A DNA stretch of 64,000 bases from Moniliella sp. 'wahieum' (Eukaryota). Positions 5,558 through 57,803 of the stretch are shown here, piece by piece. The translations under genes were made by a program, and so were the position numbers. The DNA is taken from contig RSEE01000015.1 in NCBI GenBank assembly GCA_003971905.1, positions 372,001 to 436,000 on the forward strand. The letters are read 5' to 3'. The notes under the pieces are model-generated. The model did no database searches. It worked only from the letters and a program-made list of their open reading frames with translations, and was not told the DNA's origin. Within the stretch, counting starts at the first letter, position 1, and each line of letters starts with the position of its first letter.

Positions 5558-7093
5558 TCACTGTTTCAGCCGCATCACAAAAGTATGCCAACCGTTAGCA
5601 CCGAGCGGAGCGAGGCGAGCGATTTCATCCAGCATCGCGTTCTGCTCAAGTCGTTCGGTAACCTTCTCCAATTTGCGTGGGTGCACCGTGTCGGACGAGT
5701 CCAACAGCTTCGTAATTCTGTTTTTTGCATCCACTTGGCGTCCATGCTCCGTATGTTGGTGATTCGCCACGGATACACGTTCTCCCAAGTTCATGCCTGA
5801 AGCAGTGGGAGTGGCTCGAATGAGGGCGCGTCTCGTCTGGGGGAAAACAAGGATGAAAGCTGGATGCGGAAGGGGGCTGGGTACGCCGTGGAGTGATGTT
5901 CGGTTGAGTGGGAACACTGAATTGGAAGCGAGGTGGGGGCCCAGGGAGAATTGATGTTGATGGAGTGGGAGTGACGGAGGACGTGAAAGTAGATGGGGGT
6001 ACAAATTGAAAAAGGGTTGCAGACGAGGAAGAAGCGTTGCGTGCGAGCGGGATGGGGTTTGAGGAAGGGGGATGGGCATTGGACGGAAACTGAAGACGTT
6101 TGAGGACGTTTGAAGGGGCTTTGAAGGGAAATATGTTTGAGAGTCTTGAAGGGGCTTTGAAGGGAAATATTTGAGGTCGTTGAAGGGGCCTTGAAGTGAA
6201 AGATGTTGAGGACGAGGACATAGGTGCGAGCTGGGCGGAGTTTGAGGAGGAAGAGTTGGACGGAAACGGGAACAAGTTTGAGATCGTTGAAGGGGCATTA
6301 AAGGAAAATATGTTGGAGGTCGTTGAAGGGTCTTGAAGGGAAATATGTTTGATGACGATGACGGAGCGCTGGGTGCGAGCTGGGTAGAGTTTGAGGAGGG
6401 GTTGGACGGAAACTGGAACAGTTTGAGGTCGTTGAAGGGGCGTTGAAAGTGAAAGAAAATGTTTGAGGATGAGGACGAAGAGTTGGGCGCGATCTGAGTG
6501 GGGTTTGAGGAGGGAGGATGGGCGTTAGCAGAAACTTGAACAAATTAGGGGAAGTTGAGGGTGGAACGTGGCGACCGAAGAAGCTGGAAGGGAAGGACCG
6601 GCGACTTGGGTTGCGGGAGGAGGAAGGGGAGGATTGAAGCGAAAAATTGGGGCTGGACCGGGAAGTGGAGCCTCTTTAGGGCATGGATGCGCTGTGAGAT
6701 ATGGGATGGGAAGCGATTCTGCTCAAAGAGCCTGGTACGGGTAGCTCTCCCTCTACCGCCTCCCTGCCAAGCGCCGCTCTGAGCCGGACGAAGGAGCTGT
6801 GCCAGTCATCAAGCGCAGCAGCATAGGCTGCATCGTGGGTAAAGTGGAGCAGATCCTGTAGCGCTGCATCATTTCGGATACGAGCTGCGTGAGTTGGGAT
6901 TGTCCATGTGGTCTAGCGGCAAAACAGTGCCACTTGCGTCCGGCGGGGATGGGCACTTAAGCGGGATGCGGCGCCCATGCAGCAGCTCGCCGAAGCAGGG
7001 GTCGTCCGGACGAGGAGGAGAGAGAAGCGTTGTACGACGCCATGGAGCCCGCGCGGGCTGCCGGTGCGGGGGGGCTCTGGGAGAGCTGGCCAT
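5558..7093 (-). CDS. Orphan Pro/Ser-rich protein with internal FxF repeats (ends approximate, frameshifted)
   Basis: ATG at 7093 (MASSPRAPP). Overlapping minus-strand ORFs join into a repetitive NIFPFKAPSTTS / NLFQFPSN region and a helical-looking C-terminus (AKNRITKLLDSS...LEKVTERLEQNAMLDEIARL). Confidence 0.5.
6040..6545. repeat. Imperfect nested tandem repeat (coding minisatellite)
   Basis: Recurring ~30-35-nt unit TTTGAGGTCGTTGAAGGGGC(T)TTGAAGGGAAATAT inside larger blocks starting GTGCGAGCTGGG at about 6040, 6223, 6373 and 6487. Confidence 0.85.
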
Positions 7094-34363: not shown

Positions 34364-34817
34364 ATGCGATCCAAGTTCAAGGAAGAGCACGCGTTCGAGA
34401 AGCGTCAGGCGGAGGCCCAGCGCATCCGCGCCAAGTACCCGGACCGTATCCCCGTCATCTGTGAGAAGGCGGACAAGACGGACATCCCGACGATCGACAA
34501 GAAAAAGTACTTGGTCCCCAGCGACCTGACTGTGGGCCAGTTTGTCTATGTCATCCGTAAGCGCATCCGCTTGGCGCCCGAGAAGGCAATCTTTATCTTT
34601 GTCGATGACGTCTTGCCTGCGACCGCGGCGCTGATGAGCGCGATCTATGATGAGCACCGTGACAAGGACGGCTTCCTCTATGTGTCGTACAGCGGGGAGA
34701 ACGTGTTTGGAGAACAGGACGATGCGCTAGCTTCGCTTTGGTGCGTCCTTCCGCTCCGCTCCGCTTCTCCCCTGAGCCGCCCTGATGGGCATGCATGACT
34801 AACCAGCACCTTGCAGA
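34364..34817 (+). CDS. ATG8: Autophagy ubiquitin-like protein Atg8
   Basis: [14 protein letters not shown]...[11 protein letters not shown]...[23 protein letters not shown]...YSGENVFG. Splicing of intron 34741-34816 forms the stop TG|A. Confidence 0.97.
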
Positions 34818-49294: not shown

Positions 49295-49402
49295 TTCATC
49301 TTCATCTTCATCTTCATCTTCATCTTCATCTTCATCTTCATCTTCATCTTCATCTTCATCTTCATCTTCATCTTCATCTTCATCTTCATCTTCATCTTCA
49401 TC
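49295..49402. repeat. (TTCATC)18 microsatellite
   Basis: Perfect hexamer array of 108 bp. Confidence 0.97.
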
Positions 49403-50064
49403 TCATCTTTATCGCCATGACCATATTGGCACGTATGTGAAGTAGGGTCTTTTCTACTTGTTCCCCCAACCGACACCTGATTCTCCCCTATTGCCCTGGA
49501 GGCCTCATTTTCTCTTTCCTGAGAGCTTCCCCCAGACCCCCTTTTTTACACTGCAGACGTGCAGACGGGCTGTCCCTGTATGCCCGAGCAGCAAGTCCAC
49601 TCAACATACCGTCAGCAACAAATGGAATTATGACATAGTAACCCGCCGCACCCCTCCCTGAACGGTCTGGCCTCAGTACCCCCTCTGTGTACCAGCATCA
49701 CAGCCTTTGAACCGCGTATTACCCATAACTCACTGAGTTCTCTTCTAGTGCCGTGTCCAGCTCAGAAATGCCTTTCTTCACACACAGAGACCCCTTTGCC
49801 TCATCCGTGGGCAGGCTACAGCAATAGTGATGCGGTCGTGATGCTCGACGTCAGGAAGATACTTTAGGGCAGAAGGGACAACAGTGGCATCCAAGACTGT
49901 TGTTCTAAGAGAAAAAGGACGGTACACCGTAAAGACATGAGCACGCAACATGCACGGTCCTTTTCGACATACATTGCATCGAAGGGTCATTTTTGCCGTG
50001 CTCCGTTCAACACGAACCGTGGATGATTGACGGGCCTCTGCGGTAGAGGTCGTGCACAGCCCCG

Positions 50065-50460: not shown

Positions 50461-52880
50461 CTATCTCATCTTCAAGCTTCAAGCTTCATCGACTTCATAT
50501 CAGGTCTCATTTCCGGTCCAGGGCCACTTATTAGTCGGACAGATGACTATAGCCCCAATAAGAACGTGTCCACATAAATTCCTCGAGGAATGTGAAGCGT
50601 CTTTTGAAGAGCTTAATAAAGGTCTGTCCAGCTGTCAACACATGAACATGCTTTTGTCACATGTCTTTGAGCCATATACCAGAAAGAGTTGTTCCGCATC
50701 TCATGTCGTTCGCAGCTCAAAACAGAATAGCTCTCGTCGATAGATTCAACATTTGACCTGCCAGTCGTTCCTTCTTGCAATGTCCTTCTCTCATATACAT
50801 CCAAAGTCAGCCATGCCGCTACTGCGCCATCGATAGGCCTTGGAGGAAGTGTGGGGAGAGACATTGCTTTGAAACTGCCCAAATAACACCATTCCTTTAC
50901 CACCGTCGTGTTATCATAACGACCGGAGGTGAAGGTGTGGCAAAAAATAATACTTTTGTCATGCCGTAGTGGTCGTATTGTTGGGCTATACTGCGGCGAT
51001 ACCGCGGCTGTCTTGAGGCAAACCCCGAGAGCCGGAGCCGCCTGAGCCTCGGGAACGTTGAGAAGGGTGAGAGGTGAGGTACTGTTGATGACGTTGATTA
51101 TTGTGGGCGCTTAATTATTAGCGTGTGTGGTTATGAGGGCAGAGAAGAAGAGAGAGCAGAGATAAAGTTTTTGAAAGGTTTATTTGATTGGCGCGGTTAA
51201 TATGTTGGTGTAGCAGGTGGGCCGAGAGAGTGGGTGCCGATCGGTATGGAGAAAGGAAGAAGGGCGAGGGTTGGGTGTGTTTTCGATTGACAACAATAGG
51301 GTGTGTTGGGCCCCGATCAAAGCGCTGGCATAACATAACACGTCTAGGCGCTGGGACAAAAAAGCCACCCAACAGGCAGTCGGCAGGGGACCGGGGACTG
51401 GGGACCGGGGACTGGGGACCGGTGAGTTCCAAGATGCGAGATGGCCGAGAAGTGAGATCTGAGACCCGAGTATCAACGTATAACCCAACATCCACGCTGC
51501 AACAAAAGCAAAACCTGCCATTCTGGGCATGCCACCCGCGGCACAGTGCGCTCGTGCCAGGTGCCGATCCTGGGCAATGTTATTGATGCTCGCATGCCAG
51601 TCCTTCCGTACCCTGCCGTACATCATCGATCATCCGACACGTTTTGCCGGTGGCCAAGGCAAGCCGAAGCAAATGTCGATCCCATTCGTCATCCGCCCCG
51701 CGGCCCCCAGCCTCCATTCCTGTGCCACTCGGTCTGAGTACCGAGCTCTCCTGAGCCGCTTAGCCGCTCAACCGCTCAGCCGCTCAGCGCCACCCCATTC
51801 CGCGCTTAAGCCAGCCCTCCCGCTATCCTAACCCAATTAAGCAGGTGTGCCGCGTGCCCATAGCCATCCCTTCCTGTAACATAGAATGTTGGGCGCACGA
51901 GGTTGACGGATCAGGGACACAGCCGAGCTGAGCATGGGAGCCTGAGATCGAGCCCCCGTCACTAATCACTAGTCGCTCTGGCTCGCTTCTGGATCTTTTC
52001 CACACGTCATCGCGTCATCCGTACTTGGATGGCTTCCTCTGGTGCTTCCTGTGCGCAGCACTAAGATCGAGGGCAAAATGATCTAGTACTACTGTCGATG
52101 TTCTTTACGAGCTTCTAGTATATTGTCAGTGCATGTCAGTCCTCAGTGAGGATCGAGGAGAGACATTTTACAGTGTCTCTCAGTCGGTTCGCCTGTCAGA
52201 CTTACACATGTTACAGAGAGGGCCTTGTACTTAGTATAGCTACACGCCACTGCACACTGATCGTCTGCTGCCATCTAGCGACAAGAGTGAAACTTCGCAG
52301 AACAGCAGACGCCTATAGTGCCCTTGGGTTGACACATGCCACTATGCCAGCTACAGACCTTAGGTTCTGTACCTTATATTAGCACTGCGTACTCCACGTA
52401 CAAGCGGCAGCTTCTTAGATCCCAACGTTCAAAAAGTAGACAAGGCAGGCAATCATCACTGAAGGAGCGGGCGCAGATCATCCACGGCCCAACTTCATGT
52501 TGCGCCGGCCCTGAGTGCCCAAACCTTTTGCACAATAAGAGAGGTCTGAGCGGTGCACGGAAAGCACGGGCTCACTTAGTTAGAAGGCGTGGAGGAACTG
52601 CGCGAATATGTTCAAGCTGCCATTTGGCCCCATTGTGTACTTGTTCCCATCATCACGTTCAACCACCTTCAAACCGCCCAGGATGATGCTTGAAGCAAGG
52701 TGTGGTTGGGACTTATAGACGAAATTTAAGAAAAAGTGTATATATAGACGGACTGGACCGTTGGTTCCCTCTCCCCCCTTCCACCACCCATCCACTCCGT
52801 CCTTTCCTCTTCGACGTACCCTGGACCCCTCTTCTCTCCTCATCACTCTCGCCTACCCAGCCACGACACCCTCTTTGACA

Positions 52881-53780
52881 ATGAAGTTCACCGCTACGTT
52901 GCTACTTGGCCGTCGTATTGGTCCTGGCTTGCTCTGTCGAGGCTGGTCCCATCGCAACCAACGCCCTACACATCTCCGTCGCCAGGATGACATCCTCGAT
53001 GGCGTTGCCAACGTGGTATCCTTGATGGCCAGATCAAAACAACTTCCAGCACTCATCGAAGCGCGACAACATTGGTGATGGTATTCTCAACGTTGGCGCT
53101 ATTGGCGGAGAGGTAAACAACAACTTCCAAGGTGACAAGGGTGGCGACAACATCCTCGATGGCGTTGCCAACGTTGGTCTCCTTGACGGTCAGATCAACA
53201 ACAACTTCCAGCATCTTCGAAGCGCGACAACATTGGTGATGGTATCCTCAACGTGGCGCTCTCGGAGGAGAGGTGAACAACACTTCCAAGGTGAAACGGT
53301 GACGATATCCTCGACCGGCATTGCCAACGCTGGCATTCTTCACGGTCAGATCAACAATGACTTCCAGCACTCGAAGCGCGACAACATTCTGGATGGAATT
53401 GCCAACGTCGGACTCCTTGGCGGTGAGATCAACAACAAAACTTCCGAAACTCCAAGGGGACAACATTGGCGATGGCCTCCTCAACGGGTGGCGCGATCGG
53501 CGGAGAGAGGAAGGTGAAAACCATTTCCAAGGTGACAACGGTGACGCCATCTCGATGGCCTTGGCAACGCTGGATTCTCACGGTCAATCAACATATGACT
53601 TCCAACACTCGAAGCGCGACAACATTGGTGACGGTGTTGTCAACGTCGGTTTGGGCGGTAAGGTGACAACAACTTCCAAATCCGTAAGGCTCCGCCGCCC
53701 AGCAAGGGTCAGACCAACATCCTCGATGCCTGCTCAACGTTGGTGCCGGGAATGGTGAGGTCAACAACAACTTCAACTGA
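52881..53780 (+). CDS. Secreted Kex2-processed repeat protein (KEP-like peptide precursor), ten ~26-aa repeats; frameshifted in this assembly
   Basis: TATATATA at 52738-52745. Signal peptide MKFTATLLLAVVLVLACSVEA (one indel). RR at 52977; AAGCGC (KR) at 53059, 53220, 53374 and 53612. Repeats DNIGDGILNVGAIGGEVNNNFQ and DNILDGVANVGLLDGQINNNFQH. Ends VNNNFN-TGA. Confidence 0.85.
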
Positions 53781-55510: not shown

Positions 55511-56661
55511 ATGTCCGACGCCTCTGATGCCTGCAGCAAAGACCCGCCCTATGCCGGCAGCATCGGCCTCCGAATCGGCTCCATCTTCATCATCCTAGCC
55601 ACCTCCCTCTTTGCCACCATGTTCCCCGTCGTCACCAAACGCGTGCCCCACGTCAACATCCCCATGTGGGCCTACGACATTTGCCGTTACTTTGGTTCGG
55701 GCGTCATCTTGGCCACCGCCTTTATGCATCTACTTCAGCCTGCGTCCGAAGAGCTTGGATCGCCCTGCCTCAACTCCACCTTCCAAGGCTACCCGTTCGC
55801 CTTCCTCTTCTGCCTCCTCTCTGCTCTGTACGTGCGACCGATCCTCCTTTCTCGCATACCCGCACAGTGTGTACGGCCGCACTAACTCCTGGTCACCCAT
55901 CACAGCCTCATCTTCCTCATCGAAATGCTCGCCTTCCGCTGGGGCATGAAGCTCGCAGATAAACTGGCATACGACCCGCACCAAGGTGGACACCACCATG
56001 CCACCGAGCACATCAACCCGCCCATTGCACCCATTGGCGAGTACACTTCGTCGCCCAGGCAGCAGCCTGACGTGCTGGAGAAGACGGACAAGATGTCCGA
56101 CGAAGAGAACTGGGTCGTGAGTGCACACGATGCTGATTCGGAGCAGACCGAGGCACTGTCGGGAGTGGTGCGTCGCAAATCATTGGTGTGGCCATCCTCG
56201 AGTTTGGTGTCATCTTCCACTCGGTCATCATTGGTCTTACCCTCGGTTCTTCCAGCTCCCAAAGCGACTTTATTACTCTCTTCATTGTCATCATCTTTCA
56301 CCAAATGTTTGAAGGGTTGGGTCTTGGCGTCCGTCTGGCATTTTTGCCTCTTGAAAAGAATTCGTGGATCCCCTTCCTGGGCGCATTGGCCTACCCGTGC
56401 GTCACGCCCATTGGCGAGGCGATCGGGTTGGGTCTGCGCCACACGTACAATGGCAACAGTGCCACGGCCAACTACGTCGAGGGCACACTCGATTCCATCT
56501 CGGCGGGCATTCTGTGCTACACGGCCTTTGTCGAGCTGATTGCCCATGACTTTATATTTAACGACAAGATGCGCAAGGCACCCATCTGGCTGCTCACCCT
56601 CGACATCTTTTATGTCTTCCTCGGCGCAGGCTTGATGGCACTCTTGGCGAAATGGGCCTAA
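55511..56661 (+). CDS. ZIP-family zinc/iron transporter (Zrt1/Zrt2-like)
   Basis: LRIGSIFIIL, YFGSGVILATAFMHLL, His-rich loop GGHHHATEH, ILEFGVIFHSVIIGLTLG, FHQMFEGLGLG, DSISAGIL, MALLAKWA. Intron 55828-55905. Confidence 0.95.
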
Positions 56662-57731: not shown

Positions 57732-57803
57732 TGGACGAACAGGGAATTGAACCCCGGACCTCATGCATGCTAAGCAAGCGCTCTACCCCTGAGCTATCCG
57801 CCC
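57732..57803 (-). tRNA. tRNA-Ala(AGC), intronless
   Basis: GGGCGGATAGCTCAGGGGTAGAGCG-CTTGC-TTAGCAT-GCATG...GGTTCAATTCC...TCGTCCA, with a G3:U70 pair and a T-run terminator. Confidence 0.93.

Follow-up and report, generated by a model that had tools for sequence, protein, structure and literature searches.

Known KEPs and fungal amyloids

Kex2-processed repeat proteins (KEPs) have, by definition, a signal peptide followed by repeats with Kex2 sites between them (Umemura 2020, PMC7329392; this and the other papers named by PMC number are cited from excerpts). The catalogue in that source holds 7878 members in 1345 of 1461 strains, with 2560 members lacking homologs, and only 103 of its 1680 basidiomycete KEPs have a DUF3328 neighbor (PMC7329392). 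Yeast-like basidiomycetes tend towards longer KEP peptides, and the excerpted survey ties STE13 dipeptides to hormone-like KEPs and describes Rep1 as lacking the STE13 signature (Le Marquer 2019, PMC6339444). In the excerpts of a Coprinopsis study, KEP deletions gave no phenotype, non-growth roles were suggested for the deleted KEPs, and most KEP peptides were linear and of unknown role, many of them being pyroglutamated (Vogt et al., PMC9769878).

Rep1 of Ustilago maydis (UMAG_03924) is released as 10 peptides of 34–53 residues that assemble on hyphae as amphipathic amyloid fibrils (PMC3133707, PMC4617103), and orthologs have been reported in Tilletia (PMC9172201) and in other smuts (PMC7409079). 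Hum3 of the same fungus contains 17 amphipathic repeats of 31–36 residues, with 14 of the 17 split by putative Kex2 motifs (PMC4617103). Among other fungal amyloids, the prion-forming domain of HET-s is built from two 21-residue pseudo-repeats joined by a 15-residue loop and held by Asn ladders and salt bridges (PMC4055769), and fungal amyloid signaling motifs are linked to NLRs (PMC9815663).

Organization of the repeat locus

The window is the whole 64,000-nt stretch of DNA that was analyzed. Within it, an ATG at 52881 and a TGA at 53778–53780 on the plus strand bound a putative signal peptide and ten related units (52986–53777). The coordinates, unit starts and A and B consensus sequences claimed in the initial annotation agree with the sequence, as does its view that indels hide the gene, since no listed open reading frame covers the whole of it. 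A TATA-like box (52739–52746), a putative promoter element by its sequence, lies 142 nt 5' of the ATG and is followed by a pyrimidine-rich leader. The putative signal peptide (52881–52943), identified by hydropathy and by three-frame reading across one internal frame break, consists of M-K, a hydrophobic core with a 9-residue hydropathy peak of 3.5, and V-E-A before G-P. A short pro-region (52944–52985), with one break of uncertain position, ends in a putative RR-Q (codons 52977–52985).

Frame-aware alignment to two unbroken cores gave the unit order A B A B A A B A B B'. Units are 26–27 codons long and have in common a 22-residue core; the two unbroken cores, DNIGDGILNVGAIGGEVNNNFQ of unit 2 (type B) and DNILDGVANVGLLDGQINNNFQ of unit 3 (type A), agree at 14 of 22 positions. 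The tail is H-S-(S)-K-R in A units and a Gly-Asp-x-Gly linker in B units. The proposal that the two types mostly alternate stands through most of the array and breaks down at the A A pair of units 5 and 6 and at unit 10, an A/B hybrid with alignment scores of 96 versus 98.

Unit 1 (type A, 52986–53064, two breaks) has a 5-codon tail, HSSKR, with KR at 53059, and unit 2 (type B, 53065–53145) is free of breaks and ends in an uncut GDKGG linker. Unit 3 (type A, 53146–53225) has an unbroken core, KR at 53220, and a 5-codon tail containing its single break. Unit 4 (type B, 53226–53300, three breaks) ends in a Gly linker, and unit 5 (type A, 53301–53379, one break) ends in HSKR with KR at 53374. In unit 6 (type A variant, 53380–53458, two breaks), the dibasic site is only putative and cannot be called, because the tail breaks right after Lys. 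Unit 7 (type B, 53459–53542) carries a GDNG linker, two frame-changing breaks and one 3-nt excess, while unit 8 (type A, 53543–53617, five breaks) again ends in HSKR, with KR at 53612. Unit 9 (type B, 53618–53712), with one break and one codon missing, runs into an 11-residue Pro-rich spacer containing RK, and the hybrid core of unit 10 (53713–53780, one break) leads to the TGA.

Tandem Repeats Finder reported periods of 81 (5.7 copies), 161 (2.5 copies, score 552) and 238 (score 617), with scores for the three spanning 260–617. The 903-nt locus contains 113 shared 12-mer pairs compared with at most 3 in 1000 shuffles; elsewhere the median was 0 across 211 windows of the 64 kb, and only a hexamer microsatellite topped the locus.

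Coding constraint on the units

Stops are absent from the 202 intact core codons, as are Tyr, Cys, Trp, Met and Pro, and 10 of the 22 core columns are invariant. Pairwise dN/dS was 0.18 for A-A (10 pairs), 0.18 for B-B (10 pairs) and 0.23 for A-B (25 pairs), values that come from non-independent pairs and include sequencing error. When each variant codon was counted once, 22 of 47 variants were synonymous in the coding frame; the remaining five frames gave 10/48, 3/45, 8/47, 2/48 and 16/45, with stops also involved in four of them. The absence of stops is weak evidence on its own (P 0.10–0.77). The units are protein-coding and were under purifying selection, a conclusion held with high confidence given dN/dS values near 0.2 and stop-free intact codons, and the protein-coding, KEP-type gene of the initial annotation is upheld.

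Dibasic sites and predicted products

KR is read directly after four of the five A units, always in the same register, with identical codons and with Asp as the next residue; the earlier statement that KR follows A units thus holds for these four, the exception being the broken tail of unit 6. B-A junctions have no dibasic site, so that firm KR occurs at four of nine junctions and two further sites fall at breaks. The N-terminal RR at 52977, also claimed earlier, is in frame with unit 1, and its reading hinges on where the pro-region break is placed.

In the established secretory pathway, such precursors are processed by signal peptidase, Kex2 and Kex1. On this basis, the predicted pieces are 26 residues (if the RR is real), 52, 50, then either 24 and 50 or a single 76, and 55 last, with lengths estimated where three tails are broken. 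Because cut and uncut junctions alternate, the products would be two-repeat peptides; the expectation of B-linker-A products of about 50 residues is supported in that most pieces are two-unit B-A peptides of a predicted 50–52 residues. The unbroken B-A stretch is composed of 22% Gly, 20% Asn, 12% Asp and 30% Ile, Leu, Val and Phe, with no Pro (Gly plus Asn 42%), and has a net charge of -6 per 49 residues. If the RR is real, the first predicted peptide begins with Gln. No STE13 dipeptide (X-A or X-P) follows KR at any of the KR sites.

The locus thus has the features by which KEPs are recognized in sequence: a putative signal peptide, ten tandem units and four firm KR sites, the dibasic sites standing at repeat ends. 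It also resembles most basidiomycete KEPs in having no DUF3328 neighbor among 42 reading frames scanned, and it is an orphan, like 2560 of the 7878 members in the excerpted catalogue. A distinctive point relative to the standard KEP layout is that HSKR/HSSKR cut junctions and Gly-Asp-x-Gly uncut junctions mostly alternate, which would place two diverged repeats in each product.

Homolog searches and genomic context

All homology queries were fragments of 49–139 residues, and distant relatives may therefore be missed. In a word-indexed protein collection that includes smut proteomes, as matches to a neighboring ZIP transporter show, a 59-residue unbroken stretch matched 0 of 53 candidates among proteins of 105–2000 residues, and a 139-residue frame, made up of about 100 true repeat residues and an out-of-frame part, matched 0 of 31 candidates among proteins of 76–244 residues. 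A phmmer search of 1.84 billion representatives gave no genuine homolog of the repeat; the sole match, an Ig-repeat protein, aligned through the out-of-frame part of the query and was rejected. The ESM Atlas returned no usable match for the repeat in either of two queries, Pfam and NCBIfam gave no match to it, and neither did the PDB, where a profile gave two chance matches at E>1. Metagenomes gave 0 of 599 pattern matches for the repeat, and none of 39 metagenome ZIP loci matched the repeat (best E 3.7) or had a neighbor in common. Exact look-ups of two neighboring proteins gave no entry in the protein collection. Rep1 was the sole KEP amyloid in the texts searched, which did not describe the repeat; a full-text search for the motifs gave three irrelevant matches.

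The secreted repeat precursor, as read from the DNA, has a gene layout that is common in fungi and a peptide sequence for which these searches gave no relative. A match to a characterized family had been named as one outcome that would refute the original proposal; the protein, structure and metagenome searches gave none, and Rep1 was compared by description only. To speak of a new family was an overstatement, as this is a single orphan locus and a third of the KEPs in the excerpted catalogue are orphans (PMC7329392). Since no search found a homolog, any function proposed here has no cross-species conservation behind it.

The neighboring genes encode EMC10, the ZIP zinc transporter, a tRNA, a VPS9 protein, RPS25 and an AAA ATPase. 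The top named matches of the ZIP transporter (55511–56661) are from Tilletiaria anomala, Sympodiomycopsis, Tilletia and Testicularia at 66–70% identity, and by these sequence matches the locus belongs to Ustilaginomycotina, with no close relative among them. An Rfam scan of 48–58.5 kb detected one tRNA only, and the tRNA gene lies at 57732–57803 on the minus strand, between the ZIP and VPS9 genes. On the minus strand at 50616–51110, a 165-codon open frame lies in a low-GC stretch (0.46–0.47) and faces away from the repeat gene; it has several Cys, a hydrophobic-looking run just upstream and no Pfam or NCBIfam match, and it may be non-coding. The spacers around the gene contain three exact 7-nt duplications (50470, 54113 and 54363). 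Farther away, Atg8 (34364–34798) is read without an intron, and its frame runs about 29 codons beyond the conserved Gly, possibly with a break near the end.

A Rep1-like surface film as the favored reading

We tentatively favor a chain leading from an intact gene through Kex2-cut peptides to a Rep1-like surface film, though taken as a whole it has somewhat less than an even chance of being correct. In a smut-related fungus, an intact gene without introns would encode a secreted precursor of about 300 residues, which signal peptidase, Kex2 and Kex1, acting as in the established pathway, would probably cut into peptides. Given these steps, the chances are about even that the acidic, Gly/Asn/aliphatic peptides would come together on the cell wall by self-assembly, as an amphipathic β-sheet film or as fibrils. 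At B-A junctions, where a Gly linker stands in place of KR, two in-register cores (identical at 14 of 22 residues) would stay in one chain and could stack. By analogy, their role could be like that of the Ustilago maydis Rep1 repellents in adhesion to hydrophobic surfaces and in aerial growth. The Rep1-like film is preferred on four grounds: the same subphylum offers a precedent, the products have a fitting size, STE13 dipeptides are missing, and the composition suits it.

The likeness to Rep1 extends to predicted secretion, to imperfect repeats with KR sites and without an STE13 signature, and to product size, predicted here as 24–55 residues (one possibly 76) compared with 34–53 for Rep1. 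The two differ in precursor length (652 residues for Rep1, about 300 here), in repeat length (34–55 versus 26–27 residues) and in the 228-residue terminal piece of Rep1, which is absent here. No sequence match to Rep1 surfaced in the searches, and the comparison of the two draws on published descriptions. Fibrils and a phenotype have been demonstrated for Rep1, whereas here both are predictions from sequence. In Hum3, too, some junctions lack a putative Kex2 motif, as 14 of the 17 repeats are divided by one (PMC4617103), a precedent for the uncut junctions; Hum3 differs in its C-terminal hydrophobin domain, absent here, where the mature part has no Cys. The repeats of Rsp1, also from U. maydis, differ in being hydrophilic and 18 or 21 residues long (PMC4617103).

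The strongest competitor, a possible reading that we consider clearly less probable than the film, keeps the same gene and the same Kex2 cutting and has the peptides remain soluble, as signals, as host- or microbe-directed factors or as acidic cation binders. It would suit the net charge of -6 per 49 residues, and it would agree with the excerpted report of Vogt et al. that most KEP peptides are linear and without known role, with non-growth roles suggested, and that pyroglutamation, which the Gln after RR would permit, is frequent (PMC9769878). AlphaFold2 also gives amyloid no structural support. Against this, STE13 dipeptides, a mark of hormone-like KEPs in the excerpted survey (PMC6339444), are missing after KR; products of about 50 residues that carry two degenerate copies would seem to be structural components more than ligands; and the strict calcium motif of RTX proteins is absent.

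That the peptides may form amyloid is suggested by their composition and by the example of Rep1 within the same subphylum. In a more specific version, which we regard as unlikely, the locus would be an independent second smut-type repellent whose cut and uncut junctions, in alternation, release two-rung units that stack as a secreted β-solenoid amyloid with a HET-s-like fold. The similarity to the prion-forming domain of HET-s lies in two pseudo-repeats of about 21–22 residues per chain, a Gly-rich link, and conserved Gly and Asn at matching positions (PMC4055769). However, the HET-s loop has 15 residues and the linker here 4–5, and HET-s has inter-rung salt bridges (PMC4055769), while the cores here carry acidic charges only, save one Lys and one Arg. 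HET-s is also cytoplasmic and NLR/HeLo-linked, whereas this precursor has a putative signal peptide and no other domain; it shows no sequence or motif match to HET-s and lacks the G-N arc motif. In an in-register stack, aligned Asp and the charge of -6 would be expected to repel unless screened by low pH or cations.

Curli CsgA, chaplins and RTX β-rolls are secreted, Gly/Asn-rich and low in Pro. The repeat precursor shares these properties, with no match to them in Pfam, NCBIfam or the PDB. Curli CsgA/CsgB repeats follow the pattern S-X5-Q-X-G-X2-N-X-A-X3-Q, and RTX β-rolls consist of consecutive GGxGxDxUx nonamers. The curli repeat, full or core, had no match in three frames of the repeat and none in Pfam, and curli, PP, RHIM and HET-s-like patterns in their generally known forms likewise had no match in three frames. 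RTX nonamers gave 0 strict matches and 1 relaxed match, and a nine-residue sub-repeat of RTX type was rejected, as lag-9 periodicity had P 0.14 after allowing for lags. Strand-type hydrophobic alternation in the cores did not exceed that of shuffles (P 0.14–0.53). AlphaFold2 monomer predictions had pLDDT values of 51.7 and 53.4 with almost no structure, an uninformative result for amyloid monomers. The HET-s or curli architecture proposed in the initial annotation is therefore not supported, as there is no motif match, no strand alternation, no PDB match and a pLDDT of only 52–53. Judged by sequence, the repeat precursor falls outside the groups typified by HET-s, curli, RTX proteins, dikaritins and alpha-pheromones.

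The precursor might also be secreted largely or partly uncut, with inefficient use of KR, and fold or polymerize as one repeat protein. The presence of firm KR at only four of nine junctions fits this proposal, but the recurrence of KR in register after four of five A units, with identical codons and then Asp, is the standard KEP layout, and we consider an uncut precursor improbable.

Frame breaks as assembly errors or decay

The repeat gene is very probably intact, with its damage confined to the assembly. Over 0.9 kb, 20 breaks change the frame (about 22 per kb), 15 in cores, 3 in tails and 2 in the leader, a count that excludes two length changes that keep the frame and an offset artefact in unit 10. 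In the ZIP gene, at a distance of 1.7 kb, alignment to each of three homologs shows a single break over 1.15 kb, in a variable loop near 56155, and the general error rate of the assembly alone therefore cannot explain the repeat locus. A codon-usage break model detected 5–6 of the 20 breaks and gave 0–6.4 breaks per kb for other genes, rough figures as the model was trained on the neighbors it scored. Introns and programmed frameshifting were rejected as sources, with no match to a branch site or a slippery heptamer, respectively, and with breaks of 1–2 nt that are irregular.

If the indels are real, the gene was recently inactivated, which we judge improbable to the same degree as an uncut precursor. 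This account draws on the contrast in break density with the ZIP gene (about 22 versus about 1 per kb) and on the two of 20 breaks that lie outside the repeats. Neutral decay usually brings several substitutions per indel, but the closest unit pairs are 6 substitutions and 3, 4 or 6 indels apart, with the qualification that the unit alignment may hide substitutions within breaks. In simulations of neutral decay, at least 10 columns stayed invariant in 20% of runs when each indel came with one substitution, a ratio that is thus not rejected (P 0.20), in 0.1% at two, and in 0 of 4000 runs at three or more, so that decay at two or more substitutions per indel is rejected (P ≤0.001). Inactivation also sits poorly with the lack of stops, with a start, stop, signal peptide and KR codons that are all intact, with breaks in housekeeping neighbors too (once in the ZIP gene), and with an equally indel-rich second repeat in the window.

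This second coding-type tandem repeat, at 6040–6560 on the minus strand, consists of 36-nt units reading approximately S-N-I-F-P-F-K-A-P-S, interleaved with longer Ser/Pro/Asn-rich units. Its frame shifts in nearly every unit, with 12 indel events over 214 nt relative to a reference unit. It has no Pfam match, and it is called coding-type from its sequence without implying a working gene. A (TTCATC)20 microsatellite at 49295–49413, with 97% matches and 1% indels, contrasts with the indel-rich coding repeats.

A repeat-specific consensus error is favored because of the unit-pair differences, the decay simulation and the second indel-rich repeat. The breaks are thus very probably uncorrected long-read errors in a tandem repeat.

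Helical and cyclic peptides

An Ece1/candidalysin-like reading, in which the released peptide would be an amphipathic helix acting on membranes, is quite unlikely. It shares the KEP layout, and the N-terminal half of the core is slightly better as helix than as strand, with a helical hydrophobic moment of 0.55 over the first 11 core residues; however, this moment is marginal and not significant relative to shuffles (P 0.06–0.09), the peptides are strongly acidic with 42% Gly plus Asn, and AlphaFold2 predicts no helix.

Dikaritin cores are far shorter than the repeat cores here. A dikaritin-type precursor with cores cyclized by DUF3328 oxidases, which would likewise have a signal peptide and KR-delimited repeats (PMC9769878), is very improbable, in keeping with the initial annotation: the cores have no Tyr, no DUF3328 or other tailoring enzyme was present among 42 reading frames scanned, 10 HxxHC matches included none in a DUF3328 context as judged by eye, and a DUF3328 neighbor is in any case rare among basidiomycete KEPs (103/1680 in the excerpts of PMC7329392).

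Implications

As it stands, the locus adds one orphan to the thousands of known KEPs; its 50-residue B-A peptide is short enough to be synthesized and assayed directly. Repeat-peptide genes drop out of annotation in error-prone long-read assemblies, and because long-read errors hide such genes, KEP catalogues built from gene models undercount them. Rep1 is the only KEP-derived amyloid in the literature searched, and a second one unrelated to it in sequence, if true, would mean that KEP-built hydrophobin substitutes arose repeatedly in smut-related fungi.
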